DNA of 64,000 nt from Clostridia bacterium (lineage in GTDB: Bacteria; Bacillota; Clostridia; UMGS1883; UMGS1540), in assembly GCA_017442155.1 (NCBI GenBank), contig JAFSAU010000008.1:67649-131648 (forward strand), written 5' to 3'. The stretch's first letter is position 1. Each line of letters starts with the position of its first letter. A program made the position numbers and the translations under genes. This document shows positions 512-63,331 of this stretch, one piece after another. The notes below the pieces were generated by a model. The model searched no databases. It saw nothing but the letters and a program-made list of their open reading frames with translations, and was not told where the DNA came from.

Positions 512-3500
512 ATGAAGAAAGTATTTGCACTTTTGCTGGCAGGTATTATGACCCTTACGACTTTTACGGCTTTTGCAGAAGAGGAAGAAGCAAAGCCGAT
601 TATGATTGCCCCCACTGTGGAGCTGAGCGCAGATAGACAAACGGCCTACTCCATTAAGGAGAGACCCAAAAAATCGGCGGACTATAAGGTTGTAAACTTA
701 GAGGCTCCCACAAAAGTGGCCGAAGAAAATGGGAATGTTGAGCATGTACTGAACCCCGGCTTTGAATCTTCGTCCGACACTTTAAACCTGAATTGGGGAC
801 AGGGCGGTCTTGAAGGCGGAAAATGGGGAGAGTCCGGCGGCTTTTTTGAAAAGAAGGATGTGCATGGCGGCAGTATAGCGGCACATACAGTTGCTGCAGA
901 GGGAAAAAATGTGCATTTTCTTCAGAGCCTCGGCAATGTACTCGGTGGGCAGGAATATGAACTGACTGCGTGGGTAAAGAGGGTTTCCGGTTCACCGACA
1001 ATCTCTTTAACCTGCATTTATAGAGACCCTGAGACGCTTATGAGTATGGAATACACAAATCGTGTCAATTTGCAATTCGGGGATGCACCCGGAGGGGTCT
1101 GGACACGTAAAACCATACGTTTTACCCTTCCTGAAGATGTTATCTCCGTAACGCTGATGGCTCGACTTATTGGTGGCGGAGAAGCCTATTGGGATGATTT
1201 TTCATTAGTCGGACCCAGCCGCCCGGCAAAGAAAATGTCCATGCCGGAATATATTGCTCCGACTGCGGATTCCGTAAATCTTCTGAAGGATGCCAGCTTT
1301 GAAGAGGCGGACGATGTAAAGCATATAAAGCATGGAACGGAAGAGGAAGGCTATTGGTTTGACCGTGATGACGATGTACTCCGCGGCTGGTATACCTATT
1401 CTGACGAAGAAGCTCATACCGGTACAAAATCCCTGAAGCTGAACTGTGACAACAACGTTATGCCCTGGGTTGGCCAGGCCATCAAGGTAAAGCCTGAGAC
1501 CACATACCAGCTTTCTATGTGGGTGAAGATTCCGCGTGGCACACAGGAAACCTATCATTTCCAGGGCGACTGCTTTACCTATAGCTCGAAAGCGACAGAG
1601 CCGGACAATTATTTTAAGGACGGACGACGCTCGCTCCATGTGTATCCGGATTTTGATAATAACGAATGGCAACAGGTTGTAACTGTATTTTCAACGCCGA
1701 CTGAAGCTGCTTACTATCACATTATGATTCGTACGGGAGGAAACAGCGTATCTTATTTTGACGATGTAGAGCTGTATGAGCTTTCCGGTCTGAGTAAAAA
1801 AATCAGAACCTTTAGTCCTGATGATGTATTTTATTATTCTGATTATGAGGGGAATGGTTATGCAGACCTGAAAACCTATCTGTCCACATCCGACGAAGAG
1901 CAGAAGGTACGTTTCCGCTTCTATGATGGCGAAAAGGTTTTACTGGAAGAAATTGCAACTGTTTTACCGGATGGAACCCAGCGGTTCAATTATCCCTTAG
2001 AACTTTTATCTGAGAAAAAGAAGGAATACAGACTGGAAGCAATGATGCTCGGCCCGAATGGGGAAGAAACCGAGGATACACTTAGCAGATACATATATAA
2101 GTATGACCGTCCCACAAAGCTGAACGAAGCCATGCAGTTGATTACAAACGGTGACAAGGTGATTCAGAATTATGTGCTTGCACAGGGGACATCTCCTGAA
2201 ATTATGTATCGTATTTCTGAAGTGGGGGCTACGATAGGCCGTGGTATCGGTACGGTCAGAACGGACAGAACGGAAAGACTTGACGTGGCCTGGCAGGCAG
2301 GTATGTACGCCACGACAACCTTATTTAACCACGAAGATATCCGAGACCCGGAGGTATATGCACAGGTTGTAGATACCATAAACCGTGTAAAAGACCATCC
2401 GGCCCATATTGGCTGGTATTTATGGGAGGAACCGAAATTTGCCGGTGACGATATTGACCTGGATGAAAATCTTCGTATCGGCGCAAAGCTGATTCGTGAT
2501 TTAGACCCGGAGCACCCGCTGTTCGGCGTACTTTCCGAGCGTCTCTATTCCCAGGAATTTGGTAAATATTGCGATATTATCGACATGGACCTTTATCCGG
2601 CACAGATTTATGACAACCGTCGCGGCGAGAATGTCGCAAAGGGTATTGCCATGGGACTGGAGGAAAATGACTGGCAGATTCCCATCGGCATTATGACCCA
2701 GGCTTTTGAATGGTTCGATTTCCAACCGACCTGGAACGACCTTCGGAACTATGTCTATGCCTGTATGTTTGAAGGCGCAAACGGGTTTAGCTTCCATACC
2801 TTCGGTAAGGAAACCTCTACTGCGGAAAACGGAACCTGTGTAAAGCCCGGTGATGAAAGATGGAACGGAATGGTGAAGGCGGCAGAATGGGAATATGACT
2901 TTATCTTTGACCACTTTACCAAGATGAAGGCTCCGCTCTTCAATGAAGGAAGAACAGAAGATGTCTGGTGGAGAACGGTTGTGCGGGATGGCGAACTGTA
3001 TGCCATTGCCATCAACATGTGGGAAAATCAGAAATCTACGATTGATATTCCGCTGGTAGACCATACCGGCAAAATCAAGATAAACGGTGCAAAGGCAGAG
3101 CTTGTAGAAGGCGGCGATGCAAAGACGGTGACTATTACTGGTGACACCTTCCATATAGAGCTGGATAATTTCCAGGTTGCTGTTTATAAAATTACCCCGA
3201 ACGAAGCGGTTGACTTTTCTGATGTAAAGGTTACCCGGTTCCGTGATTTGCAGCACCATGTATGGGCAAGGGATGCTATTATTGAAATGGATGAAAAGGG
3301 CATCGTAAACGACCTTTCTTATATTGCCTACGCACCCGGCAGAAACGTTACTCGCGGTGACTTTGCCATGTTCTTAGTGCGTGCCTTAGGGCTTACCGGT
3401 GACGGAACGGAAGCGAACTTTGACGATGTCTCCGCAAGCCGTGAATACGCAAAGGATATTGCCATCGGAAAGGCGGCCGGCATCTTAAATGGCGTCGGAG

Positions 3501-3760
3501 ACAATAAGTTTAATCCGGATGTGGAAATTTCCCGTCAGGATATGATGACGATTATCAGCCGCGGCATGGCACTTTCCGGCGAAAGCGATTTGTCTGCATT
3601 TTCCGATAGCAGTCAGATTGCCGACTACGCACTTTCCCATGTGAAGGCCATGATTGCTTCCGGCCTTGTAAAAGGCAACGCGGACGGTACATTAAATCCG
3701 CTGGGACAAACCACCCGTGCGGAAGCGGCGGTTATCATGCAGCGTATTGTAAATCGATAA
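512..3760 (+). CDS. Secreted multidomain protein: signal peptide, 2x CBM4/9/22-like jelly-roll modules, Fn3-like sandwich, GH-A-like TIM-barrel putative glycoside hydrolase, 3x C-terminal SLH repeats (paralog A1)
   Basis: 1082-aa ORF with an RBS GGGAGG upstream and signal peptide MKKVFALLLAGIMTLTTFTAFA. CBM-type hallmarks are present: 'NPGFE...YELTAWVK...YWDDFSLVG' and 'FEEADD...YQLSMWVKIP...YFDDVELYE'. The central region has 'DHPAHIGWYLWEEP', 'IRDLDPEHP', 'DIIDMDLYP' and 'TQAFEW'. The last ~180 aa are three SLH repeats: '...NVTRGDFAMFLVRALGL', '...ISRQDMMTIISRGM', '...TTRAEAAVIMQRIV'. It is about 75% identical by eye to the protein at 17783-21037. Confidence 0.8.
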   Translation: MKKVFALLLAGIMTLTTFTAFAEEEEAKPIMIAPTVELSADRQTAYSIKERPKKSADYKVVNLEAPTKVAEENGNVEHVLNPGFESSSDTLNLNWGQGGLEGGKWGESGGFFEKKDVHGGSIAAHTVAAEGKNVHFLQSLGNVLGGQEYELTAWVKRVSGSPTISLTCIYRDPETLMSMEYTNRVNLQFGDAPGGVWTRKTIRFTLPEDVISVTLMARLIGGGEAYWDDFSLVGPSRPAKKMSMPEYIAPTADSVNLLKDASFEEADDVKHIKHGTEEEGYWFDRDDDVLRGWYTYSDEEAHTGTKSLKLNCDNNVMPWVGQAIKVKPETTYQLSMWVKIPRGTQETYHFQGDCFTYSSKATEPDNYFKDGRRSLHVYPDFDNNEWQQVVTVFSTPTEAAYYHIMIRTGGNSVSYFDDVELYELSGLSKKIRTFSPDDVFYYSDYEGNGYADLKTYLSTSDEEQKVRFRFYDGEKVLLEEIATVLPDGTQRFNYPLELLSEKKKEYRLEAMMLGPNGEETEDTLSRYIYKYDRPTKLNEAMQLITNGDKVIQNYVLAQGTSPEIMYRISEVGATIGRGIGTVRTDRTERLDVAWQAGMYATTTLFNHEDIRDPEVYAQVVDTINRVKDHPAHIGWYLWEEPKFAGDDIDLDENLRIGAKLIRDLDPEHPLFGVLSERLYSQEFGKYCDIIDMDLYPAQIYDNRRGENVAKGIAMGLEENDWQIPIGIMTQAFEWFDFQPTWNDLRNYVYACMFEGANGFSFHTFGKETSTAENGTCVKPGDERWNGMVKAAEWEYDFIFDHFTKMKAPLFNEGRTEDVWWRTVVRDGELYAIAINMWENQKSTIDIPLVDHTGKIKINGAKAELVEGGDAKTVTITGDTFHIELDNFQVAVYKITPNEAVDFSDVKVTRFRDLQHHVWARDAIIEMDEKGIVNDLSYIAYAPGRNVTRGDFAMFLVRALGLTGDGTEANFDDVSASREYAKDIAIGKAAGILNGVGDNKFNPDVEISRQDMMTIISRGMALSGESDLSAFSDSSQIADYALSHVKAMIASGLVKGNADGTLNPLGQTTRAEAAVIMQRIVNR

Positions 3761-3794: not shown

Positions 3795-6488
3795 ATGAGA
3801 CAAAAACTTTTTGTAATTCCCCTGATTTTTGCTATGCTTTTGGGCTGCATTTGCCCTGTGAGTGCGGCATTTACCGATACGGTGGGTCTGCCGTGCGAGG
3901 CGGCAGTAGAAAAGCTGTCGGCTTTAGGCATCGTGGAAGGTCGTGGAGATGGCGCATTTGCTCCGGATGAAACCCTGACAAGAGCAGAAATGGCTACGAT
4001 TGTACTCCGTCTTCTGAATCTGCAGGCCGGTGAGACAACCCAGATTTTTTCAGACGTGACAGCAGAGCACTGGGCCTTTGCCGCAGTGGGCGCAGCCTAC
4101 AAGGCAGGTATTGTCAACGGCACGAGCGAAACCACCTTTGCGCCCGATGCGGTGGTAACATATCCGCAGGCGGTGAAAATGCTTGTCTGTGCACTCGGCT
4201 ACGGCGTAAAGGCAGAGGCGGCCGGTGGCTATCCCACGGGATACCTGTCTATCGCCGCCCAGATTGGGTTGCTTGATGGCGTAGCGGCTATAGACGGTGC
4301 AATTACCCGTGGCACCATGGCAATGCTGGTTTCCAACGCTGTGGAAGTTGATATTTTAGAGCGTACCAGCTATGGCGATGACTACACCGTAGCAACAGAG
4401 GAGGGTGCGACTGTCCTTTCAGAATATCTCCATATCCAAAAGCACGAAGGAAAGATTACAGCAAACGGCATGATAACTTTGGAAGGCCGTTCTGTCCGTA
4501 AAGGTGAGGTTGCCATGGGCGAAGAAGTGTTTGCCGTGGGAGAAACGACGGCAGATTCTTTCCTGGGCAGAAAAGTCGTCTTGTATGCAAAAGAGGAAAA
4601 CGATGTAAAAACGGCGCTGTATATTGAAGCAAAGAAAAGCTCTGAGAGTCTTACGGTAGATGCATCGGATATTCTGCCGAAATCTACAATGACAAAGCTT
4701 TGCTATGAGGTGGAAAATAAGGAGCATACGGCAGAAATTGCGGCAGATGCCGTCTGGATATATAACGGCAGCAAAAAAACGGATATGACACCGGATAAAC
4801 TGATTTTTGCAACCGGTACAGTCGAACTGATTACCGCAAACGGCACGGTGGCCGACACGGTTATAATTCGTTCCTATCAGAATGTGATTGTAGATAGCAT
4901 ACGGGCAGAAGAACATAAGCTGATCTTTAAAGACAGAAGTATTCCGCTGACAAGTCTTGTACTGGATCCGACAGATTTCTCGTACCGTTTCAGCTTTAAA
5001 AATACAAACGGAACGGATGCGTCAGTAGGAGAATGTGCCGAGTGGGACGTTCTGTCTGTGGCAAGGAGTGAGGATGGCCGTGTAATTGAGGTAATTCGCA
5101 GCACGGAATTTACCGCAGGTAAAGTGGCAGAAATGAGCGCGGATATGCTTGTGATTGGTGAAAACAGCTACGAAATTGCGGCGAATGTAAAAACCAGTAC
5201 CGAACTGAAAAAGCCGGTGCTTGACATGGAAGCAAACTTCCGTCTCGACTTTACCGGCAAGGTCGCAGCGGTGGACAACGAAAACTACCGGAGCACCAAA
5301 TACGGTTGGCTGGTTGGCGGCCAGAAGCTGAAGGGCATCGACGGCAATACACAGCTTAAAATTTTCACCGAGGATGGCATGATGAAGCTGTTTACGGTTT
5401 CCGATAAATGTAAGGTAAATGGCAATCCCTCTGCGGATGTTTTAGGAGAAAGCGTCCTTTACAGCGGCACGGCCGTTATTGAACAGCTGCTCTTATTCCG
5501 TGCAACGGCAGAGGACGAAATTATAGAGATTGAAACAGCTGTGGAAAATTTAGATTTTACTTTGCAGGAGGCAGAACGTGTTGCGAAGTTCTCCAGAGAC
5601 TTTTACAGCGATAGAATCGGTATTATTGGCTATGAATCCAAAATCTTTGCAACAAGGTATATGATTCGTGAAAACAGTAAAATCTTTATCGTTGCGAATC
5701 AGTATACCGGCGACGATAAGCTCTATTCTATAAGAAACTGGGCTGATGTCGGCCATGTGGGTGCAGGCGGAACCTATAACGGTTTGTCTCTGTATGACAT
5801 AGGTGAAGACAATGTCGCCGCTGTTATGGTTTCCCGTGATACGGTCAGTGCGATTCCCACAGGGGACCCGGGCGTCATTACGCATATTACCCAGACGATT
5901 ACAGCAGACGGCGAACCGGTTATGAAGCTGACGCTGGAGAGAAAGAACGATACGGCTACCGTACTTGTAAAGGAAGACCTGGCAGTTTTAATGGAGAACG
6001 TGCTGTCTGACCCGGCAAAAGACCCGGCGGCAATAGAAGGCGTTTTGCCTGCAACTCTGAAGCCTTCCCAGTTGGAGCGTGGTGACGTGGTGCAGTACGA
6101 TATGTCCACGATAACCGGTGAAGCCACGGCGATGCGGGTGCTTTTAAGAAGCGGTTCCCGCCTGGTGGGTGAGCGAGCCAACAATGAGGGCGGCCGGAAT
6201 GCCACCGGCAATTTGGCGGCTGACTCTGATTATATCGGTAGCGTGTATGCTTATGCACAGACGGATAAAGTTTCCGAATACGGTGCCAGAATTTACGTGA
6301 CGCATGAAAAAAGAACAGGACCGGAAACCTACGAACGCATCCGTCACTTTAATGGTCCCAAAATCGTACTGTATGATTCCCGGCGGGATACATTTAAGAC
6401 AATTACGAGTGCAGAAATTTATGAAGGCGATTGGATTTTTGCTTATAAGTTGAACGCCTCGGAGCGGATTATTGTAGTATACAGATAG
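3795..6488 (+). CDS. Large cell-surface protein with signal peptide and N-terminal SLH triplet (S-layer-like; paralog B1), ~700-aa beta-rich C-terminal region of unknown function
   Basis: 897-aa ORF with RBS GAAAGGA. The N-terminus reads 'AFTDTVGLPCEAAVEKLSALGIVEGRGDGAFAPDETLTRAEMATIVLRLLNL', 'FSDVTAEHWAFAAVGAAYKAGIVNGTSETTFAPDAVVTYPQAVKMLVCALGY', then 'AEGGYPTGYLSIAAQIGLLDGV'. This matches the SLH consensus and the architecture of N-terminal-SLH S-layer proteins. It is a paralog of 60551-63259, with shared 'AEGGYPTGYLS' and a C-terminal '...I(V/I)VYR'. Confidence 0.7.
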   Translation: MRQKLFVIPLIFAMLLGCICPVSAAFTDTVGLPCEAAVEKLSALGIVEGRGDGAFAPDETLTRAEMATIVLRLLNLQAGETTQIFSDVTAEHWAFAAVGAAYKAGIVNGTSETTFAPDAVVTYPQAVKMLVCALGYGVKAEAAGGYPTGYLSIAAQIGLLDGVAAIDGAITRGTMAMLVSNAVEVDILERTSYGDDYTVATEEGATVLSEYLHIQKHEGKITANGMITLEGRSVRKGEVAMGEEVFAVGETTADSFLGRKVVLYAKEENDVKTALYIEAKKSSESLTVDASDILPKSTMTKLCYEVENKEHTAEIAADAVWIYNGSKKTDMTPDKLIFATGTVELITANGTVADTVIIRSYQNVIVDSIRAEEHKLIFKDRSIPLTSLVLDPTDFSYRFSFKNTNGTDASVGECAEWDVLSVARSEDGRVIEVIRSTEFTAGKVAEMSADMLVIGENSYEIAANVKTSTELKKPVLDMEANFRLDFTGKVAAVDNENYRSTKYGWLVGGQKLKGIDGNTQLKIFTEDGMMKLFTVSDKCKVNGNPSADVLGESVLYSGTAVIEQLLLFRATAEDEIIEIETAVENLDFTLQEAERVAKFSRDFYSDRIGIIGYESKIFATRYMIRENSKIFIVANQYTGDDKLYSIRNWADVGHVGAGGTYNGLSLYDIGEDNVAAVMVSRDTVSAIPTGDPGVITHITQTITADGEPVMKLTLERKNDTATVLVKEDLAVLMENVLSDPAKDPAAIEGVLPATLKPSQLERGDVVQYDMSTITGEATAMRVLLRSGSRLVGERANNEGGRNATGNLAADSDYIGSVYAYAQTDKVSEYGARIYVTHEKRTGPETYERIRHFNGPKIVLYDSRRDTFKTITSAEIYEGDWIFAYKLNASERIIVVYR

Positions 6489-6501: not shown

Positions 6502-9500
6502 ATGAAATTTAGAAAAATCACAGCATTGCTTTGCTCTCTTCTGTTGTTAAACGGCACGGGGGCAGTAGCGGCAGAAACAGCTGCTCCCTATAGCCGGGAG
6601 GAAATCTCGGCACATACCCTTGTGGCCGGAGAAACAGCACAGGAGCTTTTGGTGAATGGCGGTTTCGAGATGTTAGAGGCAGAAACGAAGCTGCAGGTCT
6701 GGGCATTGTCAACCGGTCCGCTTGTGGAAGGCGGTAGCGAGAGGACAGAAGATGCGCACAGCGGAAGCTATGCCCTCCGTCTTTCAGCCGGTGAGGAGGT
6801 GCACCTTACCCAACAGGTGGCAATCAGCCGTCTGAACAGTGGAAAGATATGTGAGCTATCTCTCTGGGCAAAGCCGGAGAAAAAGGGTAGCAGTCTGACG
6901 CTTACGCAGACCTTTGGCATCCGTAATGAGCAGATACAGGATGAGGTGCTTGAAGATGTAAACATCATTTCATTTACAGACGCGGAGGCCGGAAAATGGA
7001 CACAGAAGATACTGCGCTTTACGATTCCCGAACGCATCTCATATACGGCAATAGATATTTCGGTGCAAAAGGACGAAGCGGTGCTTATCGACGATGTATC
7101 CCTTCTTCTGGAGGGGGCACCGCCAAAGGTGGAAAAGCCCACCAAAAAGGAACCGGTTTTAGAAGACTTTGAAATGGTAAAGAACGGCGACTTTGAACAA
7201 GGTACACTTAACTGGGGCGTGGAGCCCGGCCAGTGGAATGATTTTATCAGTATTGTACCCGGCGGCGCGACCGGCAACTGTGTAAAAATCTTCAAAGAAC
7301 CGGAAAATAGTGGAAAAAACCCACAGCTTCTACAGCATATTTCCGGCTTTGAGGAAGGTGCGGAATATCAGATGCATTTTCGGTTAAAATCGCCGGGCGT
7401 TGACAAGCTGGAATCTATATCCTACGGCTTTCGCTGGGGTGTAAACGGCGTGCGCATGGGACATGACAAAACGGGTAACATGGTACTTCTGCAAAATGAT
7501 AACTGGATTGACGTGTATCTGGACAGTGTTTGTCCACCCGGGGCAAACACCTGCATGATTGACTTCCGGCACTTTGCACCGGTCGGTTATTACATGATTG
7601 ACGATGTAAGTGTTTATATGACGAAAAGAGCGCCTTATGCTGAGGTGGAAACGGATGAGATATTCTATTACACCGAATGGAAGAAGGGCGAGGTGACCGT
7701 TCGCGACAGAACAAAGAACGGTGCGCTGAAAAACGGACGTATTGTGCTGGAAATCCGTGACGGCGAAACGGCTGTATTTACGAGCGAAGGCAGTATGACC
7801 GGCGAAGTGAAGAAACTGGAATTCCCTGTGAGTGTTCTGTCAGAAAAAGGAAAGGAATACACGGCCCATACAGCGGTGTATAACGAAACGGGTTCTCTTT
7901 TGGAGGAATACGACAGTGCAATTTACCGCTACGACAGACCTACTTACTTAGGTGCCGACGGTGTGTTCAGAAAGCCGGACCGAAACGGCGTGATGCGAGA
8001 ATATAATGTTGTCATCGGTAACGGCGTAACGAATCCGAGAATCAGTATTGTCGCCCCCTGCGGTGTTACAGTTGTCCAGCTTGTGGGCGGGGCATCCCTG
8101 CCACTGAAGGAACGGTTGGATATGGTCGAAAAGGAAGGCCTTTTAGCGCAGATTGTTCTTTATAGCGGAAAAAAGAGCGGCGGACACCCGGAAATGTTGC
8201 CACATACAATTGATAAGGTCATGGCAGTAAAGGATCATCCTGCTTTGTTTGGTTATAAAATTCAGGATGAACCCATGCAGAAGGGAAATTCGGATGCGGA
8301 GCTGGCACTGGCATACAAGACAATTCGTGACCTCGACCCCAACCATCCGATTTACACGGTAGACTCCGGTGAAGCAAGTTACGAGAGGCTGGGTAAGTTC
8401 TGCGACCTTATGGATATTGATGTATACCCCGGAAAGGGAGCGGATCGCGCCACACTGCTGGGTGAAAAAATTGAGGCGGCTGTTAAAGCGGTCAAGGGTC
8501 GCAAGCCGGTAGGGCTCCTGCAGCAGGCTTTTGAACTTGACGGTACGTTCCCCACAGCCGATGAATTTCGTCACTATGCCTATCAGGCACTGTTATCAGG
8601 TGCATCTTCTTTTGGGTATCATTCCTTCGGGGAATCGACCACACCACTGAGTCCCGAGCATTCCTCGTGGCCGGGGCTTGTGAAGATGGCCGAGTGGGAA
8701 CAAGGATTTATGTTTGATAGCCTTGTAAAGACGAAGAATCCGATGCTGAATGAGGATAAAACAGATGAAGTATGGTGGCGCACCTACGTGCTGGACGGCA
8801 AAATTTATGCCATTGTCTTAAACCGACAGCTGGAGGAAAATACAGCAACGGTGACCCTTACGGGGGTGAACGGCGGCTATGGGGCAGAGGGGTATACCGT
8901 AAAGCGGATTGCAGGCGGTGAAGAAGAAACCGTTGCCGTAAACGGCACCACCTTTACGACAAAGCTTATACCCCAGGCAGCATATCTCTATGAGATAACG
9001 CCGAACACCCCCGTGGATTTCAGCACGCTTCCCACAATGAAATTCCGCGATTTGACAGGATATAATTGGGCACAAAACGCAATTTCGTCCATGGAAAATG
9101 CAGGCGTGGTTACGGGTACAACAGACTATCTGTTTTCGCCCGGCGAAAAAATTACCCGAGGTGATTTTGCGTATTTCCTGATAACCGCCTTGGGACTTAC
9201 GGGAGAGGAGACTACATCCTTTTCGGATGTTCCGTCAGATGCCTATTATGCTAAGGCGATTGCCGCAGGGAAGGCAGTCGGTATTCTAGAGGGTGTCGGA
9301 GACAATCTTTTCGACCCGCATCGGGAAATTTCACGACAGGATATTATGACGATTACGGCCCGCGGTGCAAAGTTGGTAAAAGCACTTGCAGAAAGTGATA
9401 CCGGAGTGCTGGATACCTTTACGGATGCGGGACAGATTGCAGATTATGCACGTCAGAGCGTGGCAGATATGGTAAATGCAGGCCTTATTCTTGGCAACGG

Positions 9501-9591
9501 AGACGGTACCGTAAATCCTTTGGGTTACACAACGAGAGCAGAAGCGGCCGTCATTGCAAGTCGTATTTATAACATGCCTGTTGGTGCATAG
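6502..9591 (+). CDS. Secreted CBM4/9-like x2 + GH-A-like TIM barrel + C-terminal 3x SLH protein (paralog A2)
   Basis: 1029-aa ORF with RBS AAGGAG and signal peptide MKFRKITALLCSLLLLNGTGAVAA. Motifs include 'LLVNGGFE...YELSLWAKPE', 'MVKNGDFEQGTLNWG', 'IYRYDRPTYLGADGVFRKPDRNG', 'DHPALFGYKIQDEP', 'IRDLDPNHPIY', 'DLMDIDVYP', 'LQQAFEL' and 'EVWWRTYV'. Three C-terminal SLH repeats follow. It is very similar to 9603-12716. Confidence 0.8.
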   Translation: MKFRKITALLCSLLLLNGTGAVAAETAAPYSREEISAHTLVAGETAQELLVNGGFEMLEAETKLQVWALSTGPLVEGGSERTEDAHSGSYALRLSAGEEVHLTQQVAISRLNSGKICELSLWAKPEKKGSSLTLTQTFGIRNEQIQDEVLEDVNIISFTDAEAGKWTQKILRFTIPERISYTAIDISVQKDEAVLIDDVSLLLEGAPPKVEKPTKKEPVLEDFEMVKNGDFEQGTLNWGVEPGQWNDFISIVPGGATGNCVKIFKEPENSGKNPQLLQHISGFEEGAEYQMHFRLKSPGVDKLESISYGFRWGVNGVRMGHDKTGNMVLLQNDNWIDVYLDSVCPPGANTCMIDFRHFAPVGYYMIDDVSVYMTKRAPYAEVETDEIFYYTEWKKGEVTVRDRTKNGALKNGRIVLEIRDGETAVFTSEGSMTGEVKKLEFPVSVLSEKGKEYTAHTAVYNETGSLLEEYDSAIYRYDRPTYLGADGVFRKPDRNGVMREYNVVIGNGVTNPRISIVAPCGVTVVQLVGGASLPLKERLDMVEKEGLLAQIVLYSGKKSGGHPEMLPHTIDKVMAVKDHPALFGYKIQDEPMQKGNSDAELALAYKTIRDLDPNHPIYTVDSGEASYERLGKFCDLMDIDVYPGKGADRATLLGEKIEAAVKAVKGRKPVGLLQQAFELDGTFPTADEFRHYAYQALLSGASSFGYHSFGESTTPLSPEHSSWPGLVKMAEWEQGFMFDSLVKTKNPMLNEDKTDEVWWRTYVLDGKIYAIVLNRQLEENTATVTLTGVNGGYGAEGYTVKRIAGGEEETVAVNGTTFTTKLIPQAAYLYEITPNTPVDFSTLPTMKFRDLTGYNWAQNAISSMENAGVVTGTTDYLFSPGEKITRGDFAYFLITALGLTGEETTSFSDVPSDAYYAKAIAAGKAVGILEGVGDNLFDPHREISRQDIMTITARGAKLVKALAESDTGVLDTFTDAGQIADYARQSVADMVNAGLILGNGDGTVNPLGYTTRAEAAVIASRIYNMPVGA

Positions 9592-9602
9592 AAGGGGGAA
9601 AT

Positions 9603-12600
9603 ATGAAACTCACAAGACTATGTACACTCTTTTGCGCTTTCCTGATGCTGTGCAGTACAGAAATTCCTGCACAGGCGGCGTCTTATTCCTTTACGGAAAT
9701 TTCTGCACACACACTGGTGGATAAAGTGAACGCACAGGAACTTTTGGTAAATGGTGATTTTTCCACGTCGGAGAGCGACACGAAACCGCTGGGCTGGGGA
9801 ATAAATCCCGGAACCTTTGGTGCAGGTGAAACCGCTGAGCATATCCGCGGTAATGCATCGTGTGTAAAGCTGAACTACCCCGGTACAGGATATGCATCAC
9901 TTTCCCAGACTGTGGTGCTGAAGGATGCGGATGGAAAGAAATGTCAGTTTTCTGCACGGATAAAAGGCGAACCCTCGGAACAGGATGTTCGTGTCCGTAT
10001 ATCGTTTTGGGTTTCGCAAAACGGCACGGTGGTAGAACATTCCGATGTTATTAACGTGTTTTTTGCTGATATAAACACAAATACATGGACACAGAAGATT
10101 ATTGCATTTACGTTGCCGGAGAACATTCAAAGAATTACAATCCGCGCACAACTGCACAGCGATCTTGCGATGTATGTGGATGATATGTCTCTGCGTATGG
10201 AGGGGCTTGCAGAGGCAGACGCAGAGGAAAAAAAGCCTGTGCTGGAGGACTATGAGATGCTTGTGAATGGCGATTTTTCGGAAGCAAGTGAGGACGGTCT
10301 GACAGTTACGGGCTGGCGGCCGGAGCCGGGAAAGGGCGGAACCTTTGACGGCCGGGGCGCAGTGCTGGAAAATGACGGCGATGCACAGGGGAACTATGCA
10401 AAGGTCCTGACCGGAGAAACATTGCCGCAGCTGCGGCAGACGGTTACGGGACTTATGCCGACAGCGGAGTACCGCCTGACGTTTAAGTATAAAAATCCAA
10501 CCGCAAACGCCGTAAGTTTTTCCTGCCAGATGCAGTACAGAAAAGGAACAGCAGACATAGAGCTGGACGGCACAAAGAATATGATGGCGTATAGTAGTCA
10601 AACATGGCAGAACGGATTTTTTGATTTTGAATGTCCGGAAGAAGCGGATGGCTGTCTTGTCAGTTTCCGGAATCTTTCAGCCGCCGGGGAGCTTTACATT
10701 GATGATGCCAGCTTGTATATGACAAGAAAGCCCTACCTTGCCCTTGTAGAGACGGATGAACGTTTTTACTATACGGAGTGGAAAACCGGCTTTGTTACAG
10801 TAGAGGACAGAGGGAACGGCGAATCTCTTGCCGGTGGAAAAGCAGTTTTTACTGTTTTGGATGGCAATACAGCGGTGCTTTCGCCGCGGGAAAAGACGCT
10901 GACAGACGAAAAAACTGTATTTGAATTTTCTACAGCGCAGGCACTTTCCGAAAAGGGAAAGGAATATACGTCCGAGGTAAAAATTTATGATGCAGATGGC
11001 AAGCTCGTAGAAACCCAGTGCCATCCCATCTACCGGTATGACCGGCCCACATATCTGGGGGCAGACGGCGTGTTCCGTAAGCCGGACCGAAACGGTGGCA
11101 TGATAGAGAAGAATATTTCTATCGGAAACAACGTACCCTTTACGCTCATAGATAATACGGGAGATGAGATAAGCGATCTTGGAATCACCGTGGTGCAGAT
11201 GGGTACGGATGAGGCAAAACGTCCGCTTCTGGAGCGTATGGATGCGGTAGAGGCGGCCGGCCTGCATGTGCTTATTTCTCTTTATAACGGAAAGAAGAGT
11301 GGCGGTCACCCTGATATGCTGGAAAATACCGTGCAGACGGTAAATGCAGTCAAAGATCATCCTGCACTTTTTGGGTATAAGGTGCAGGATGAGCCGATAC
11401 AGAAGATGAATACAGAGGATGAACTGGCAACGGCCTATAAGCTGATCCGGGATCTTGACCCGCATCATCCTATTTATCTGGATGATTCGGGGGAAGGTTC
11501 TTATAAACGTATGGCTCGGGTCTGCGATATTATGGACATTGACCACTACCCATCGACAGGGGCCTACAGAGCCTCTGTCATCGGTGAAAAAATCGAGGCG
11601 GGCGTAGCGGCAGTAAAGGCCAGAAAGCCGGTATTGCTTCTGCAGCAGGGCTTCGAGATTGGCGGAGAAATGCCGAGCGCAAATGAGTTTCGTCACTATG
11701 CGTACCAAACGATGTTTTCCGGCGGCTCAGCCGTAGGATATCACTCCTTCGGGGGCGAGCCGGGACATCTGGCACCGGGGCTTGACGAATGGGACGGTTT
11801 ATGCAAATTTGCAGATTGGGAGCTTACCTTCCTGTTCGATGCCACCGTCAACCGCAAGTATCCCATGCTAAGCGAAGAAAAGACGGATGCCGTCTGGTGG
11901 CGTACTTATGTAAAGGATGGTAAAATCTATGCCGCAATCCTGAACCGGAAAGTGGCAGAAGAAAATGTGGCCGATGTGGTACTTTCTGATTTTGACGGCA
12001 CGATATCTGCTGATGGCTTTATGGCAAAACGGATTGCAGGCGGAACGGAAGAAACCATAACAGAAACGGGTAACGTTTTCAGGAAGAACCTGGAAGGCAT
12101 GGCCGCATATTTATATGAAATCACGCCAAAGAATACCATGGACTTCAGCGGCCTGAAAACCACAAAATACAGAGACCTGACCGGGTATGGTTGGGCATAC
12201 AACGCTATCTTGACAATGGAAGAAGCCGGGGTTGTCAATGATAAAACAGCGGTAAGCTTTGCACCCGGTGAAAATATTACCCGTGGCGATTTTGCCTCTT
12301 TCCTGATTCGGGCACTGGGGCTGACAGCAGATTCCACCGAAAATTTTGCTGATGTGCCTGCAGATGCACCGTATGCAAAGGAAATTGCAACAGGGAAAAA
12401 GCTTGGTGTATTGAACGGCATTGGTGACAACAGGTTTAATCCCGAAGGCGAAATCACCCGGCAGGACCTTATGGCAATCGCAGCCCGCGGTATGCGGGTT
12501 TGCCGTGAGCTTAATGAAGGAGAGGAGGAGATGCTGCAGGGCTATGCCGACGCCGGACTGATTGCGGAGTACGCAAAGCTGGATGTTGCCGCAATGGTGC

Positions 12601-12716
12601 GTGCTAATATCGTAAAAGGCAATGCGGACGGTACAATTAACCCCCTTGGCAATACAACGAGAGCTGAGGCGGCGGTCATAGCGAACAGAATGAGTCAGTG
12701 GAAGAAGGATCCATGA
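9603..12716 (+). CDS. Secreted CBM4/9-like x2 + GH-A-like TIM barrel + C-terminal 3x SLH protein (paralog A3)
   Basis: 1037-aa ORF with RBS AAGGGGGA and a signal peptide. It shares the motif set 'IYRYDRPTYLGADGVFRKPDRNG', 'DHPALFGYKVQDEP', 'IRDLDPHHPIY', 'DIMDIDHYP', 'LQQGFEI' and 'AVWWRTYV'. Three SLH repeats sit at the C-terminus. It is a tandem paralog of 6502-9591. Confidence 0.8.
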   Translation: MKLTRLCTLFCAFLMLCSTEIPAQAASYSFTEISAHTLVDKVNAQELLVNGDFSTSESDTKPLGWGINPGTFGAGETAEHIRGNASCVKLNYPGTGYASLSQTVVLKDADGKKCQFSARIKGEPSEQDVRVRISFWVSQNGTVVEHSDVINVFFADINTNTWTQKIIAFTLPENIQRITIRAQLHSDLAMYVDDMSLRMEGLAEADAEEKKPVLEDYEMLVNGDFSEASEDGLTVTGWRPEPGKGGTFDGRGAVLENDGDAQGNYAKVLTGETLPQLRQTVTGLMPTAEYRLTFKYKNPTANAVSFSCQMQYRKGTADIELDGTKNMMAYSSQTWQNGFFDFECPEEADGCLVSFRNLSAAGELYIDDASLYMTRKPYLALVETDERFYYTEWKTGFVTVEDRGNGESLAGGKAVFTVLDGNTAVLSPREKTLTDEKTVFEFSTAQALSEKGKEYTSEVKIYDADGKLVETQCHPIYRYDRPTYLGADGVFRKPDRNGGMIEKNISIGNNVPFTLIDNTGDEISDLGITVVQMGTDEAKRPLLERMDAVEAAGLHVLISLYNGKKSGGHPDMLENTVQTVNAVKDHPALFGYKVQDEPIQKMNTEDELATAYKLIRDLDPHHPIYLDDSGEGSYKRMARVCDIMDIDHYPSTGAYRASVIGEKIEAGVAAVKARKPVLLLQQGFEIGGEMPSANEFRHYAYQTMFSGGSAVGYHSFGGEPGHLAPGLDEWDGLCKFADWELTFLFDATVNRKYPMLSEEKTDAVWWRTYVKDGKIYAAILNRKVAEENVADVVLSDFDGTISADGFMAKRIAGGTEETITETGNVFRKNLEGMAAYLYEITPKNTMDFSGLKTTKYRDLTGYGWAYNAILTMEEAGVVNDKTAVSFAPGENITRGDFASFLIRALGLTADSTENFADVPADAPYAKEIATGKKLGVLNGIGDNRFNPEGEITRQDLMAIAARGMRVCRELNEGEEEMLQGYADAGLIAEYAKLDVAAMVRANIVKGNADGTINPLGNTTRAEAAVIANRMSQWKKDP

Positions 12717-12776: not shown

Positions 12777-13286
12777 GTGTACTACGATATGCTGATGGCA
12801 GAGACCGGCGGTACGTATGACGGCGCGGTGTGGCAATCGACACGGATAGAGAATGGTTTGACGTATACGCTGATTGTCAACGGAGGCCGTACTGCGGTAG
12901 AGAGAGCAGCGGCGGGGACATACGCAAAAGAGCTGGTGATTGAAAACGGAAGCAGCGTTTTTGATAACGCCGGTGGGGGCTTTATAGCTTCGCTCCCTCC
13001 GCACAGCAGTCTCTTTTTCACGACGGGTGATGCACTTTTACCCGGCCTTTACGTCGGGAACACCGCAAAAGCAACTTTTGAAAACGGAGCCGTATTCCGA
13101 GCAGCAGGTGAGACCCGGATTGGGGCAATGTACCAAAAATATGGTACAATGTGGGAGCTCGACTGTCTGTATGCAGATGGCGAAAATGTAACGGCAGACA
13201 AAGGGATTTGCAAATTCAGGGCTTTTTCCTGGGATGCAGCACTTTCGCCGCAGAAGAGTGCAGCTACGGTAATCCAAAAGCCGTAA
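12777..13286 (+). CDS. Uncertain ORF (169 aa, GTG start), no signal peptide and no recognisable domain; in the same frame as the upstream gene across its TGA stop
   Basis: The frame is open from 12717 to 13286 and is the same frame as 9603-12716, separated only by TGA at 12714-12716. A weak GAGGAA lies 10 nt before the GTG. Base composition is coding-like, but there is no supporting similarity. Confidence 0.25.
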   Translation: MYYDMLMAETGGTYDGAVWQSTRIENGLTYTLIVNGGRTAVERAAAGTYAKELVIENGSSVFDNAGGGFIASLPPHSSLFFTTGDALLPGLYVGNTAKATFENGAVFRAAGETRIGAMYQKYGTMWELDCLYADGENVTADKGICKFRAFSWDAALSPQKSAATVIQKP

Positions 13287-13332
13287 CCGGCACACCGGAA
13301 AGAAAACAAAAATTTAGGAGGATTGAACGAGT

Positions 13333-14916
13333 ATGAAAACAAAAATTTTAATTTTGGCACTGGTTCTGGTAATGGTTGGCACATGTATGCCCGCAGTGGC
13401 GGTACAGCCTACGGGTGAAAATTTGATTACAAATGGTTCCTTTGAGGATGGGCTCACGGGCTGGAAGCTTGCAAAGGGCGCCAGCGGAGAGCCGGCACTT
13501 ACCGTGTCTTCCGGTACAGTGACAGCAGATGAAAAAACGGATGGAAGCAGTGCTGTCATGATAACCGGCACAAGCGATGAGAGAGCGGTGCTCCGTCAGT
13601 TTCTGCCTGCCGGAACGCTGGAAGCGGGCAAGCAATATCAGATTTCTGCCTGCATCAATATTACATCCGGTACAAAAGCAAGAATCGCTCTTCGTGAAGG
13701 AGATATTTATAACGGCACTGCGGTGTGCGATTTGATTGGAAGAACGCCGTTTGGTACTGATACCATGTTAAGCACTGGTATTACGAATGGTTGGGTTCGT
13801 CTCTCTAAGGTATTTACTTGTGGGGAATCGACAGCGACAAACGGATGTTCTTTTATCGTGGATACGAATACTAACGCTCTTGAACTTTATATTGATGACG
13901 TGCAGCTTCGGGAAACAGACACGGGTCTTTTGAAAGATAACGGTGAATTTGAGACATTCTCGCCGGATTTTTCCTTTCTGACCGAGGAGCAGCACACCAC
14001 TTGGCTTGGCCGTACAAATGCAACTATGCCGGGAGACCTGACGCTGAAGCGGCTGGAACGGACAGAGGATTACGGTACAGCACTGTGTCTTACCGGTAAA
14101 GGTTCTGGTGTCAACAGCACGATCCTTTTTAATCTTGACAGCGCAAAGCTTTCTGCCCTCGCAGCAGATACCCCGATTAAATTCAGCTTCCGCATAAAGG
14201 TGGTAAAGGAAACGGTGGGTGAAGAAGATAAGAATGCCAATGTGTCCTTCGGTCACAGGAAAAAACAGAGTGGAAATACTGGTGGACGATTTTCAGCATG
14301 GCCCTGCACCATACCGAAGGAATATTTCAATCAGTGGGTCACTGTGGAGCATTGGTTCCCGTATAGACCTGTAGCAGACCAGGTGTACCGTTTGGATCTT
14401 GGTATAAATGATGCGAGCATGCAGTTTTTACTTGATGATTTTTCGGCAGTGGCGGAGGAGACTGCTGCTGTTGCGGAAGGCAAAACAATTTTCCTGTATG
14501 AGGAACTGAAAACGATTGGAAACGGCGGCGATGAATATAGCGCAACACGCCCCGATACCTTCTTAACGACTCGTGCAAGCATCGATGAAGCATACACACT
14601 TGACGAAACAGCAAATATTTATGTACGCTATCCCACCATGGAGGGCACCGAGCAGAAGGGAACCATAGTTTGTGCGGTGTATAGCACAAACGAAGATGGC
14701 ATGAAAATGCTGGAAACGGTAAAAACCGGCGATGCCACTGCCATTGTAGCAGGCGACTGCGGCACAGTGGTTGAGTTCCCCTTGACCGGGATTACCGTAC
14801 AGGATGGTAAGACCTATACGCTGGAGACCATGGTATGGGACGGCGTTTCCGGGCTCAGACCGCTGGCAGGTGCCGCAAAGCTGGTTGCGCCGATTACAGA
14901 AGCGACAGCAGAGTGA
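13333..14916 (+). CDS. Secreted protein with two CBM4/9-like jelly-roll modules and a C-terminal beta-sandwich domain; no catalytic barrel, no SLH
   Basis: 527-aa ORF with a strong RBS AGGAGG and signal peptide MKTKILILALVLVMVGTCMPAVAV. It carries 'ENLITNGSFEDGLTGWKL...YQISACINI...LELYIDDVQLRE' and a second module 'LLKDNGEFETF...QFLLDDFSAV'. The C-terminal ~130 aa end '...TYTLETMVWDGVSGLRPL'. Confidence 0.7.
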   Translation: MKTKILILALVLVMVGTCMPAVAVQPTGENLITNGSFEDGLTGWKLAKGASGEPALTVSSGTVTADEKTDGSSAVMITGTSDERAVLRQFLPAGTLEAGKQYQISACINITSGTKARIALREGDIYNGTAVCDLIGRTPFGTDTMLSTGITNGWVRLSKVFTCGESTATNGCSFIVDTNTNALELYIDDVQLRETDTGLLKDNGEFETFSPDFSFLTEEQHTTWLGRTNATMPGDLTLKRLERTEDYGTALCLTGKGSGVNSTILFNLDSAKLSALAADTPIKFSFRIKVVKETVGEEDKNANVSFGHRKKQSGNTGGRFSAWPCTIPKEYFNQWVTVEHWFPYRPVADQVYRLDLGINDASMQFLLDDFSAVAEETAAVAEGKTIFLYEELKTIGNGGDEYSATRPDTFLTTRASIDEAYTLDETANIYVRYPTMEGTEQKGTIVCAVYSTNEDGMKMLETVKTGDATAIVAGDCGTVVEFPLTGITVQDGKTYTLETMVWDGVSGLRPLAGAAKLVAPITEATAE

Positions 14917-20700: not shown

Positions 20701-21037
20701 TTATACAAATAGAGAGTATGCAGAGGCCATTGCCATAGGCAAAGAGGCAGGTATCTTGAACGGGGTAGGGGATAATAAGTTTAATCCGGATGCTGAAATT
20801 TCCCGTCAGGATATGATGACGATTATCAGCCGTGGTATGGCACTTTCGGGTGACAGCGATTTGTCGGCATTTTCTGACAGTAGCGAGATTGCCGATTACG
20901 CACTTTCTCATGTGAAGGCAATGATTGCTTCCGGTCTCATAAAGGGAAATGCCGATGGTACCTTAAATCCCCGCGGCAATACAACCCGCGCAGAGGCGGC
21001 CGTGATTATGCAGCGGATTATAAACCGGTATATGTAA
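17783..21037 (+). CDS. Secreted CBM4/9-like x2 + GH-A-like TIM barrel + C-terminal 3x SLH protein (paralog A4; sister of 512-3760)
   Basis: 1084-aa ORF with RBS AAGGAG and signal peptide MKKIIATLLAGFMLCSGAAVLSA. It is near-collinear with 512-3760: 'FIYKYDRPTMLNEA', 'DHPALIGWYLWEEP', 'IRDLDPKHPLFGV', 'DILDMDIYP', 'TQAFEWFEFQPTWNDLRNY'. Three C-terminal SLH repeats are present. Confidence 0.8.
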   Translation: MKKIIATLLAGFMLCSGAAVLSAPAEEREYPFKISPTVEMREDGEAYSIKERPIKEGDYKIQTLTKHTKIAGKNGDENIFPDGGFENAKETFLTGWSGNGVEGGVIGETNAFIVDDTAEGKKALKLSGPEGKNVHGVQVFTNMIPGEEYELSAWCKRVSGTANISLGFGYVEPETDMSLEYGNRVNLSFADAPANTWTQKIIQFTMPEDANKVTLMARLMGGGEIYYDGITILGPQKPVEVATMPEYVKPSEGTENVFKNGGFEEGTEVTHIKHGTEYEGIWFDRDDDVMKGHFTYSDAEAHSGKQSIHLKGDNLNMPWLGQVIKVEPETTYQISAWVKVVDPRNVNFRFQGDGYKNSPEQTAENYISDARTTVHPGIDPKNPAWQQIVGNFTTHQDAEYYCFMLRGGDKIQDMYFDDIELYPLAGLSKKLRSFIPDDVFYYSDYEGNGYADITTYKSTTDENQKVRFRFYDEEKVVKEEIVTLPEEGKYRFHYPLELLAEKKKEYRLEAMMLGANGEETDDFMERFIYKYDRPTMLNEALELMTSDGTKIENYILAQGTTPAVMWQIPEVGATIGRAIGTWRTDRIERLDVAYEAGMYATVTLFNHEDIRDPEVYADVVNTINMVKDHPALIGWYLWEEPKFAESTYDLQENIRIGAKLIRDLDPKHPLFGVVSQPLHAGELGKFCDILDMDIYPAQTYDGQRGMRIAEAISMGLESNDWQKVVSIMTQAFEWFEFQPTWNDLRNYIYMAMFEGAGGFSFHTFDKVGGIAENGTGVQPGDERWNGMVKASEWEYDFIFDHFVNQKAPLFNEGRTEDVWWRTVVRDGELYVIAVNTWENKESTVNIPLVDYTGKIKINGAKAELIEGGEAKTVNISGDTFPVELEKFQSAVFKITPNEAVDFSGVKGTRFRDLQHHVWAREAIIEMDDKGIVNDLSAVAFAPGRNITRGDFAMFLVRALGLTGSGAKVSFDDVYTNREYAEAIAIGKEAGILNGVGDNKFNPDAEISRQDMMTIISRGMALSGDSDLSAFSDSSEIADYALSHVKAMIASGLIKGNADGTLNPRGNTTRAEAAVIMQRIINRYM

Positions 21038-21485: not shown

Positions 21486-21606
21486 GAAAAAGTTTTATTT
21501 TTTTTGTTTTTTTAATTTAGAGCAAATGAAAAAGCTTGCAAACCGCGGAAAACAGTGGTATAATAATTCCGGTTAAAGCTTGAAATCTAAGGAAGAGGGA
21601 TGTAAT

Positions 21607-24001: not shown

Positions 24002-24066
24002 AGCAAACCTCCGAAAGTTTTTACTGCAATAAGTATACCATACTTTTCGCCGGATGTCAAATTTTA

Positions 24067-51632: not shown

Positions 51633-51883
51633 TTAAATCACTCCTTAAAAAGATTCTGTATTCAGTATATCAGAAGGGTGAATAGATTTCAACCCTTTTT
51701 AATTTTTTTAAAGTAAAAATGTTAATTTTTAGTAAGCATAGCGTAATTTCAGATTTTTTAAAAAAGTGAAATCTTAAAATAAGACGAATTTTGATATAAT
51801 ATTGTTAAGATTGCTTATAGTATATAAGTGCAAAATCATTTATAATGAAATCAACAATATTGTTAATTGGGGAGCGATACAAA

Positions 51884-63284: not shown

Positions 63285-63331
63285 CCCCCCTTTTATCAGA
63301 TATTTTTGTCTGATAAAGGGGGTCGTTTTTT
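63285..63331 (+). terminator. Strong rho-independent terminator ending the second surface-enzyme operon
   Basis: 'CCCCCCTTTTATCAGAtatttttgTCTGATAAAGGGGGGtcgttttttg'. Confidence 0.8.

Follow-up and report, generated by a model that had tools for sequence, protein, structure and literature searches.

B1 and B2, two genes of the window (the whole stretch of 64,000 nucleotides that was analysed), code for surface proteins anchored to the wall, from a large family of gut Clostridia that is still unnamed and uncharacterised and is referred to below as B. B1 (3795..6488, + strand) is an ORF of 897 aa (MBQ7032463.1) and B2 (60551..63259, + strand), the last gene of locus 2, encodes 902 aa (MBQ7032507.1). 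Both display a putative signal peptide, a triplet of S-layer homology (SLH) repeats and an all-beta array. We consider, with about even confidence, that B, wall-anchored and specific to its locus, assists a Gram-positive polysaccharide-utilisation operon as an accessory protein, likely non-catalytic, which captures or presents glycan. It is more likely to be such a locus-specific helper than the main S-layer protein of the cell, because it is encoded inside polysaccharide-degrading operons and is sometimes fused to an enzyme. In the sources, B1 is annotated as 'S-layer homology domain-containing protein' and the members of the family are named only in this way or as 'hypothetical protein'. A full-text search of the literature returned no description of the family.

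The original prediction that B1 and B2 are clear paralogs was borne out by full-length BLASTP (30% identity, E 9e-116, far beyond chance), and B2 reached a score of 850 against the B-family HMM. The string 'AEGGYPTGYLS', previously given as common to both, is exact in B2 only, because the context reads AEAAGGYPTGYLS in B1 and AEAEGGYPTGYLS in B2; the shared part is 'GGYPTGYLS'. The corresponding GGYPxGY motif lies in the SLH region of B1 and is nearly invariant over 111 family members. The C-terminal motif is indeed common to both proteins, but its pattern has to be corrected from I(V/I)VYR to IV[VI]YR, since the termini read ...IIVVYR in B1 and ...LIVIYR in B2.

An exhaustive profile search with the region following the SLH repeats recovered 5,956 clusters at 50% identity (E<=1e-3), and 4,216 clusters at E<=1e-30. 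Nearly all of them measure ~880-1000 aa, and their array begins at residue ~190. The true size of the family became visible by this search; a word-index homolog search gave only 10 to 21 relatives and missed B2. One carrier flagged by the scan, Acetivibrio sp. MSJd-27 (L035), is in culture. The copies present in one genome are divergent, each being located in its own CAZyme locus (at least 7 contig matches in JAZROH01, 4 in SVJY01). Over 111 members, N324 and G763 (B1 numbering) are invariant while D668 and D764 are nearly so; the residues conserved across the family (G, Y, F, P, N, D) look structural.

The translations of both B1 and B2 start with signal-peptide-like N-termini. In B1, a putative Sec-type signal peptide was recognised by eye from the translation at residues 1-24 (3795..3866, + strand), with a basic N-terminus, a hydrophobic core and a V-S-A cleavage motif (predicted cut between ...CPVSA and AF). 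It is followed by the SLH triplet, the predicted wall anchor, at residues ~26-185 (3870..4349, + strand). Pfam SLH matched with E 1e-22 in B1, where two repeats were scored, and 4e-10 in B2, where one was scored. Residues ~26-185 of B1, as modelled by AF2, can be superposed on SpaA and Sap over the whole of their three-repeat SLH domains (153-163 columns, target TM 0.68-0.76, E ~1e-6). The modelled triplet of B1 is considered real because of this match, and the triplet of B2 would follow by homology; the three tandem repeats of the B proteins are thus predicted to form one pseudo-trimeric domain. A TRAE-type motif is used by SLH domains for binding pyruvylated wall polymer. Such a motif is found in the first repeat of B1 ('LTRAEMATIV') and is conserved across the family alignment. 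Together with the secretion signal, as deduced from the translations, it places B among the SLH-domain proteins, with a predicted binding to the wall polymer.

The original prediction had further described the remainder of ~700 aa as free of recognisable motifs, and suggested to predict its structure. Both points were addressed. The ~710-aa remainder of B1 and B2 has no match in Pfam or NCBIfam, where nothing beyond SLH was detected, and a profile search of PDB sequences gave zero matches. The proposed architecture, with the SLH triplet at the N-terminus, stands, also in the AF2 model of B1. A first AF2 run with 10 sequences reached a pLDDT of 74 only and was replaced by a run with a 111-sequence alignment (pLDDT 94.2, pTM 0.72). 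According to this model, the body of B1 (residues 186-897; 4350..6485, + strand) is all-beta, some 50 strands making up an array of roughly eight small barrels of OB-like fold. It consists of a conserved core (~186-740) and a more variable C-terminal module (~750-897), and distant family members match the profile at positions 1 to ~545 or ~604 only. Comparison of eight array segments by hhalign gave no convincing repeat (best probability 60% over 20 columns); therefore the barrels are not recent duplications.

Foldseek comparison of the pLDDT-94 model with 350,542 PDB chains returned OB-fold proteins only, as local matches with TM <0.3 (SSB, HIN, CSD, LysRS N-terminal domain). No S-layer protein was among the matches, and over its whole chain the model matched neither an enzyme nor a CBM or S-layer protein. 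The body of B can thus be regarded as a confidently predicted new all-beta architecture, unlike any solved S-layer protein, CBM or enzyme. A phage-derived receptor-binding protein was also considered for B and rejected, since no match to viral structures was obtained.

It is highly improbable that B is a new carbohydrate-active enzyme, for example an all-beta lyase or hydrolase working in series with the neighbouring A-type enzymes. In its favour, N324, G763, D668 and D764 are invariant or nearly so, B is always found in CAZyme loci, and a protein made of two enzymes would equally account for the fusions with a glycoside hydrolase. However, the conserved residues are part of glycine turns (YNG, GD), as is typical of structural positions, and the Foldseek matches of the B1 model comprise OB-like barrels with no catalytic beta-sandwich, beta-helix or propeller. 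Neither Pfam and NCBIfam nor the PDB sequences gave a match to the array.

Both B genes are immediately adjoined by A-type genes, as had been proposed, and the spacings of 34, 13 and 20 bp given in the original prediction are exact by ORF coordinates. In locus 1, A_512 (512..3760, + strand; 1082 aa), which carries CBM_4_9, a clan GH-A TIM barrel and a C-terminal SLH triplet, lies directly upstream of B1, 34 bp separating its stop at 3760 from B1. After a gap of 13 bp, B1 is directly followed by two further A-type enzymes (6502..12716, + strand), A_6502 at 6502-9591, with its start at 6502, and a second one at 9603-12716, which are 48% identical. The fourth A-type enzyme of this locus (17783..21037, + strand) is 67% identical to the one at 512-3760. 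Locus 2 starts with genes for a xylose-isomerase-like TIM barrel (AP_endonuc_2) and a GFO/IDH/MocA oxidoreductase (51845..53664, + strand), a pair that recurs in the homologous locus L001. Further downstream are an A-type enzyme of 1008 aa with a weak GH2_C TIM-barrel match (55275..58301, + strand) and X_58317 (58317..60530, + strand; 737 aa), an A paralog with a signal peptide and devoid of SLH repeats. Its stop at 60530 is followed by 20 bp and then by B2.

A gene for an AraC-family regulator (50868..51632, - strand; Pfam HTH_AraC, HTH_18 and Cupin_2) is divergent from locus 2, and AraC genes also flank the homologous loci L001, L003, L004, L005 and L086. An intrinsic terminator with a 16-bp stem followed by a T-run was predicted 28 bp past the stop of B2 (63287..63322, + strand), the strongest terminator-like site in the 50.5-64 kb region, while no promoter-like or terminator-like site was detected by the scan in the 34-bp and 13-bp gaps flanking B1. 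As the counts of the promoter and terminator scan were at background overall, it was used only for these two statements. Judged by gene layout only (gaps of 34, 13 and 20 bp), B does not appear as the stand-alone constitutive gene that is expected of an S-layer protein. By the same kind of evidence, obtained from the window loci and at least 20 related loci, B is encoded within, and would be co-regulated with, a polysaccharide-utilisation locus; the related loci contain CAZymes, ABC sugar transporters and AraC regulators.

Gene organisation therefore argues, at the level of sequence, against B as the constitutive bulk S-layer protein. The same distinction had been drawn in the original prediction, and it is favoured by the tiny gaps, the AraC regulator, the terminator after B2 and the several divergent copies. 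The bulk S-layer protein was rejected on gene layout and copy number. A related possibility is that B is an alternative or inducible lattice protein of the S-layer, the fusions being enzyme-decorated subunits. S-layer proteins such as Sap and EA1 of B. anthracis, SbsB of G. stearothermophilus and SpaA of P. alvei share with B a signal peptide, the N-terminal three-repeat SLH, TRAE and a multi-domain all-beta body of ~700 aa. In Sap, EA1 and SbsB, the beta domains follow an N-terminal SLH, which is the domain order of B, and other Bacillota have S-layer proteins that form families of paralogs. The size of B (~95 kDa) is typical as well, and its body is rigid and multi-domain in the AF2 model. 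Nevertheless, we regard a lattice function as improbable. The body of B lacks fold similarity to the solved assembly domains of S-layer proteins, and only its SLH part matches Sap and SpaA. B1 is located mid-operon with gaps of 13-34 bp and no predicted promoter or terminator of its own, and locus 2 is flanked by the AraC regulator. Moreover, paralogs with only 30% identity would not co-crystallise, genomes hold up to seven copies, each in a different CAZyme locus, and B differs from the S-layer proteins by enzyme fusions in 14 clusters.

The original prediction had named as an outcome against it that homologs of B would never co-occur with the A family in other genomes. This does not hold, because relatives of B adjoin A genes elsewhere and 14 clusters are A-B fusions. 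A-B synteny was observed in L001, L002, L003, L005, L006, L007, L013, L014, L017 and L018. An A gene was present within 10 kb of B in 7 of 35 loci and in none of the 44 control loci with SLH only (p 0.002), the loci being ascertained through B so that these counts run from B to A only. By distance class, the pairing was seen in 6 of the 15 close genome loci and in 1 of the 20 distant ones. A metagenome scan seeded with A recovered remote TIM-barrel relatives only, none of which had SLH or B.

Fusions of A and B were identified in 14 of 158 representatives, which stand for independent clusters, in the order A core, SLH, SLH, B. The fusions P0049 and P0029 align with A proteins of the window at 31% identity (E 5e-114 and 4e-89, respectively), and P0049 is a single called gene on its contig. 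Appended modules occur in some members: P0050 has F5/8-type-C (CBM32-like) modules after the array, P0020 a CBM_4_9 after the core and P0067 an A-like CBM before the SLH repeats.

The pairing of A and B is thus real and recurrent, yet not exclusive. Elsewhere, B is also found beside genes for GH92, GH2, GH42-like/DUF4832, heparinase-II-like and GH123 proteins, ABC sugar-binding proteins, AraC regulators and other SLH-anchored giants, and a gene with a C-terminal SLH triplet directly abuts 17 of 43 B genes. The idea of dedicated partners of the A enzymes is consequently retained for the recurrent link and not for its exclusiveness.

Four proteins of the window lack an SLH anchor and share a C-terminal module of ~110 aa. 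Besides X_58317, locus 1 encodes two SLH-less proteins (12777..14916, + strand), at 12777-13286 and 13333-14916, the latter with CBM_4_9, and locus 2 one of 483 aa (53713..55164, + strand). The N-terminus is signal-peptide-like in the 483-aa protein and in 13333-14916, and not in 12777-13286 from the listed GTG start. All end with this 'W[DN]' module, which in X_58317 is found where the anchored paralogs have their SLH triplet. B might then be an anchoring scaffold that does not bind glycan and tethers these secreted proteins to the wall, the 'W[DN]' module docking in the manner of cohesin and dockerin. Every A/B locus examined contains at least one SLH-less protein with a terminal 'W[DN]' module. 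An HMM of the module revealed further copies in 12 loci, always at the extreme C-terminus, and 11 of these loci also hold B, including L082 which has no A. A genes devoid of SLH are direct neighbours of B in the window as well as in L002 and L017, and the pTM of 0.72 indicates a rigid body fit for a platform. However, the module co-occurs with A as well, which confounds its link to B, most A paralogs own an SLH anchor and need no scaffold, and Pfam searches of B1, B2, the A paralogs and the small neighbours gave neither a cohesin nor a dockerin match. We consider the scaffold rather unlikely. Its far-reaching version is less probable still: gut Clostridia would have a docking system that is non-cellulosomal and has so far gone unrecognised, with B as the wall receptor into which the 'W[DN]' modules plug. 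In that case, every operon would build an enzyme complex of its own on the wall, with the A-B fusions as the covalent version of it.

Returning to the favoured role in glycan capture, the SLH triplet would fix B to the wall and display the rigid ~710-aa body of OB-like barrels. Made from the same regulated operon as the surface glycoside hydrolases of the A type, B would hold or present polysaccharide, or fragments of it, at the wall beside these enzymes; the conserved core may serve as platform and the more variable C-terminal module may confer locus specificity. We infer that B is non-catalytic, binds glycan and acts jointly with A at the surface. This reading draws on the synteny and fusions with A, the CBMs appended in some members, the other carbohydrate-related neighbours and the operon layout. 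For the scaffold or substrate-capture function considered in the original prediction, Pfam and fold matches revealed no binding site, conserved aromatic platform or cohesin-like module in B1 and B2, nor any CBM. The few members with appended CBMs could mean that the array itself binds no sugar, and pairing with A covers part of the B family only; both observations speak against a capture role.

Surface glycan-binding proteins (SGBPs, SusE/SusF-like) of Bacteroidota polysaccharide-utilisation loci offer a functional analogy only, B being in the favoured reading their Gram-positive counterpart. As is seen or presumed for B, they are non-catalytic, all-beta and multi-domain, present as one divergent copy per locus, co-regulated with surface enzymes and transporters, and poorly conserved in sequence between loci. 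In contrast, B would be attached by SLH to the wall polymer and not by a lipid tail to the outer membrane, it has no sequence or fold homology with them, and glycan binding is only presumed for B. The scaffoldins SdbA, OlpB and Orf2p of C. thermocellum organise enzymes at the cell surface. Like B, which is likely non-catalytic too, they are SLH-anchored, non-catalytic and encoded with polysaccharide-degrading machinery. They differ by cohesin modules, a C-terminal SLH and dockerin partners, whereas the SLH of B is N-terminal, cohesins are absent from B, and no dockerin was found by Pfam in A or other neighbours of the window loci. A cohesin-type scaffoldin was rejected for B on the lack of these modules.

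Gram-positive gut bacteria are major fibre degraders. To our knowledge, their polysaccharide-utilisation loci have no marker gene comparable to SusC/SusD, and we know of almost nothing on non-catalytic surface components outside cellulosomes in these bacteria. With thousands of clusters, a single copy in each CAZyme locus and repeated fusions to neighbour enzymes, the B family could serve as such a marker. It points to a common surface mechanism, either substrate capture or enzyme organisation, in SLH-bearing, mostly uncultured Clostridia.

The A proteins resemble SLH-anchored glycoside hydrolases such as Thermoanaerobacterium XynA, the Caldicellulosiruptor SLH glucanases and R. cellulolyticum Cel5I, with which they share CBM4/9/22-like modules, a clan GH-A barrel and a C-terminal SLH triplet; B differs from these enzymes in having no catalytic module. 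Cel5I has been described as an SLH-anchored multidomain glycoside hydrolase (PMC4976890). The catalytic core of A falls outside every Pfam GH family, its closest solved relative being GH158 (E 7e-11 over ~120 residues), and the A paralogs are flagged as an unclassified hydrolase family of clan GH-A. This family has an invariant Glu within a 'DEP' motif and a second invariant Glu some 145 residues further on. A truncated AP_endonuc_2 gene was also noticed at 36-497, 5' of locus 1.

The two paralogous proteins with an N-terminal SLH triplet, B1 (3795-6488, + strand; 897 aa, MBQ7032463.1) and B2 (60551-63259, + strand; 902 aa, MBQ7032507.1), were found as ORFs as originally predicted, with exactly the intergenic spacings of 34, 13 and 20 bp described. 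They align from end to end with 30% identity (E 9e-116), and both display a signal-peptide-like start, with putative cleavage between CPVSA and AF in B1 and between IPAGA and EF in B2. The proposed shared motifs are real but were worded slightly off; the strings common to both are GGYPTGYLS and the C-terminal IV[VI]YR, which are also signatures of the whole family. The N-terminal SLH repeats are the only Pfam matches, and NCBIfam added no further domain. No internal sequence repeats were detectable in the non-SLH remainder (the array), and its profile matched no PDB sequence.

The array of B1 (residues 186-897) was modelled with AF2 from 111 aligned representatives (pLDDT 94.2, pTM 0.72) as an all-beta body of about 50 strands, whose high pTM points to a rigid, well-defined body instead of beads on a string. 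A model based on a 10-sequence alignment reached pLDDT 74, and its helical N-terminal part superposes on the complete SLH domains of SpaA and Sap. Foldseek searches against PDB and viral models gave no whole-chain relative (TM <0.15) and only local likeness to OB-type small barrels (SSB, HIN-200, cold-shock domain arrays, the LysRS N-terminal domain, LEF-3 and S1). Neither an S-layer assembly domain nor a CBM, cohesin or catalytic fold was among the matches, and that B represents a new enzyme is considered highly improbable.

Searching 1.84 billion cluster representatives with a profile of the non-SLH region detected 5,956 proteins at E<=1e-3, of which 4,216 reached E<=1e-30. Among 158 family members examined, the median length is 914 aa and the array begins at residue 150-250 in 130, i.e. 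SLH followed by the array. In distant members, only profile positions 1 to ~545 or ~604 are matched, so the family has a conserved core followed by a C-terminal module that is variable (residues ~750-897 in B1). Known sugar-binding modules occur in some representatives: CBM_4_9 after the conserved core (P0020), F5/8-type-C modules after the array (P0050) and an A-like CBM before the SLH domains (P0067). All 79 loci retrieved from species-representative genomes belong to Clostridia, mostly gut MAGs (Oscillospiraceae, Eubacteriales, Monoglobus and others; goat, rabbit, deer and Hadza among the sources) with a small number of isolates (e.g. Acetivibrio sp. MSJd-27), and a B-family ORF was identified by HMM in 35 of the loci. 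The window is part of a Clostridia MAG. Several copies can occur per genome, with at least seven contig matches from one species-level bin and another four from the genome that carries the 82% ortholog of B1. Source annotations read only 'S-layer homology domain-containing protein' or 'hypothetical protein', and a literature search retrieved no paper on the family.

Five paralogs adjacent to the B genes or in their vicinity (512-3760, 6502-9591, 9603-12716, 17783-21037 and, in the B2 cluster, 55275-58301), referred to as A, share 28-67% pairwise identity and one architecture, in which one or two CBM_4_9 modules precede a central region and an SLH triplet forms the C-terminus. A sixth (58317-60530) combines a signal peptide with the same core and lacks SLH. 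The core profile matched clan GH-A enzymes in the PDB, GH158 best (E 7e-11 over only ~120 residues), followed by GH2 glucuronidases and then GH5 glucanases/mannanases, while Pfam gave only a sub-threshold GH2_C match; the N-terminal modules match CBM4/22-type modules binding xylan and glucan. Two glutamates are invariant, one within a W-x-x-x-DEP motif, and would fit the catalytic pair of a retaining GH-A enzyme. The earlier label of enzyme paralogs is therefore fair, and the six A proteins probably form an unclassified clan GH-A glycoside hydrolase family, outside the named GH families.

The pairing of A and B proved to be recurrent. In a genome scan, an A-family ORF was present within 10 kb in 7/35 B loci and in 0/44 control loci, which were retrieved with the same query but contained only an SLH protein (Fisher p 0.002). 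Where genes were called on contigs of relatives, the neighbours of B are CBM_4_9/SLH proteins of 1,045-1,265 aa (L001, L003, L005) or a CBM_4_9 protein lacking SLH (L002). The first three contigs also carry upstream AraC regulators and, downstream, a ~525-aa CBM protein (L003, L005) or, at the same position, a 535-aa protein without Pfam match (L001). Moreover, 14 of the 158 representatives, less than 50% identical to one another, are single A-B fusion proteins of 1,659-1,815 aa in which the A core is followed by SLH, SLH and the B array. Two align with the A proteins of the window at 31% identity (E 5e-114 and 4e-89, respectively), and one of these two was confirmed to be a single called gene on its contig. 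Fusions of this 'Rosetta stone' type are strong evidence that A and B would act together. Since the SLH domains lie between both parts, B would not simply be the stalk of A and probably has a surface function of its own. A further ORF (L084, 8375-14293; 1,973 codons from stop to stop) comprises ~1,100 aa without Pfam match, SLH and a B array, and is thus B fused to something outside the A family.

The association is, however, not exclusive, as A is present in only 6/15 close and 1/20 distant B loci. Elsewhere B is abutted by GH92, GH2 and GH123 genes, a GH42-like/DUF4832 protein with DUF5107 or a heparinase-II-like protein with F5/8-type-C; other neighbours are large C-terminal-SLH proteins with Ig-like domains, ABC sugar-binding proteins and permeases, and AraC regulators. 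Of 43 B genes, 17 lie directly next to a gene on the same strand whose product ends in an SLH triplet. The view of B as a dedicated partner of A must be widened to a general component of CAZyme loci. Distant B genes are also repeatedly adjoined by a protein of ~545-560 aa whose only Pfam domain is a C-terminal SLH triplet (L004 8355-10001, L039 3280-4908, L057 8852-10540, L031 4966-6636), which may be a second conserved partner family.

B1 lies mid-cluster between gaps of 34 and 13 bp, which contain ribosome-binding sites and no promoter-like or terminator-like site. The B2 cluster is preceded by a divergent AraC gene (50868-51632, - strand) and encodes, in this order, AP_endonuc_2, a GFO/IDH/MocA oxidoreductase, a protein of 483 aa whose N-terminus resembles a signal peptide, A, the A paralog without SLH and finally B2. 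Among the terminators of the region, the strongest (63287-63322, 16-bp stem) starts 28 bp past the B2 stop codon, and the second strongest lies upstream of the cluster. As predicted from gene layout, this fits substrate-induced co-expression with the operon and not a stand-alone constitutive S-layer gene, in line with the original prediction that B is not the bulk S-layer protein. That B is instead an inducible S-layer lattice protein is quite improbable.

The SLH-less proteins of these loci share a ~110-aa C-terminal module ending in [FYL][LFM]W[DN]xxxGLxP, and most have a signal-peptide-like N-terminus. In the window they are encoded at 12777-13286, 13333-14916, 53713-55164 and 58317-60530, the last with the module in place of the SLH triplet; in relatives, at L001 16823-18430, L003 16881-18452, L005 14630-16198, L085 1750-3204, L002 1386-3992, L021 13014-14684 and L082 17048-21196. 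The module has no Pfam match and may serve in alternative anchoring or docking. That B is an anchoring scaffold for the SLH-less secreted proteins of the operon, all of which end in this module, is considered rather unlikely; less likely still is that B is the receptor of the module in a new docking system of non-cellulosomal type. The best-supported reading, with about even probability, is that B serves the polysaccharide-utilisation operons of Gram-positive bacteria as a wall-anchored surface partner that is locus-specific and non-catalytic and would capture or present substrate beside the anchored enzymes, a functional analogy to the SGBPs of Bacteroidota PULs. With association and non-bulk status backed, exclusivity failing and the scaffold or capture role still inferred, the original reading is partly supported. 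Neither the SLH anchor nor the concept of accessory surface proteins encoded in polysaccharide loci is new; as far as our searches show, the ~710-aa array, its family comprising thousands of clusters, the distribution of one per locus and the enzyme fusion are undescribed.

A xylose-isomerase-like TIM barrel gene (AP_endonuc_2) precedes both clusters (36-497 and within 51845-53664), and is paired with one or two GFO/IDH/MocA oxidoreductases in the B2 cluster and in L001 (19545-22399). Pairs of this kind function in pathways of oxidative (3-keto) glycoside cleavage, which hints at unusual downstream sugar processing. The B1 cluster also encodes a GHL6 protein with a GH42 trimerisation domain (15802-17751) and a 260-aa protein without Pfam match (14937-15719); judging from the latter, which has no signal-peptide-like N-terminus, both may belong to an intracellular arm of the pathway. 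Beyond this cluster, a 494-aa SLH protein with one Pfam-scored repeat near its N-terminus (21580-23064) is tied to B through SLH only and lies outside the family. Two tandem NlpC/P60 + SH3 peptidoglycan hydrolase genes follow on the - strand (23237-24705), and a perfect 12/12 sigma-70 consensus (TTGACA, 17 nt, TATAAT; - strand, 21485-21457) has no obvious gene assigned.
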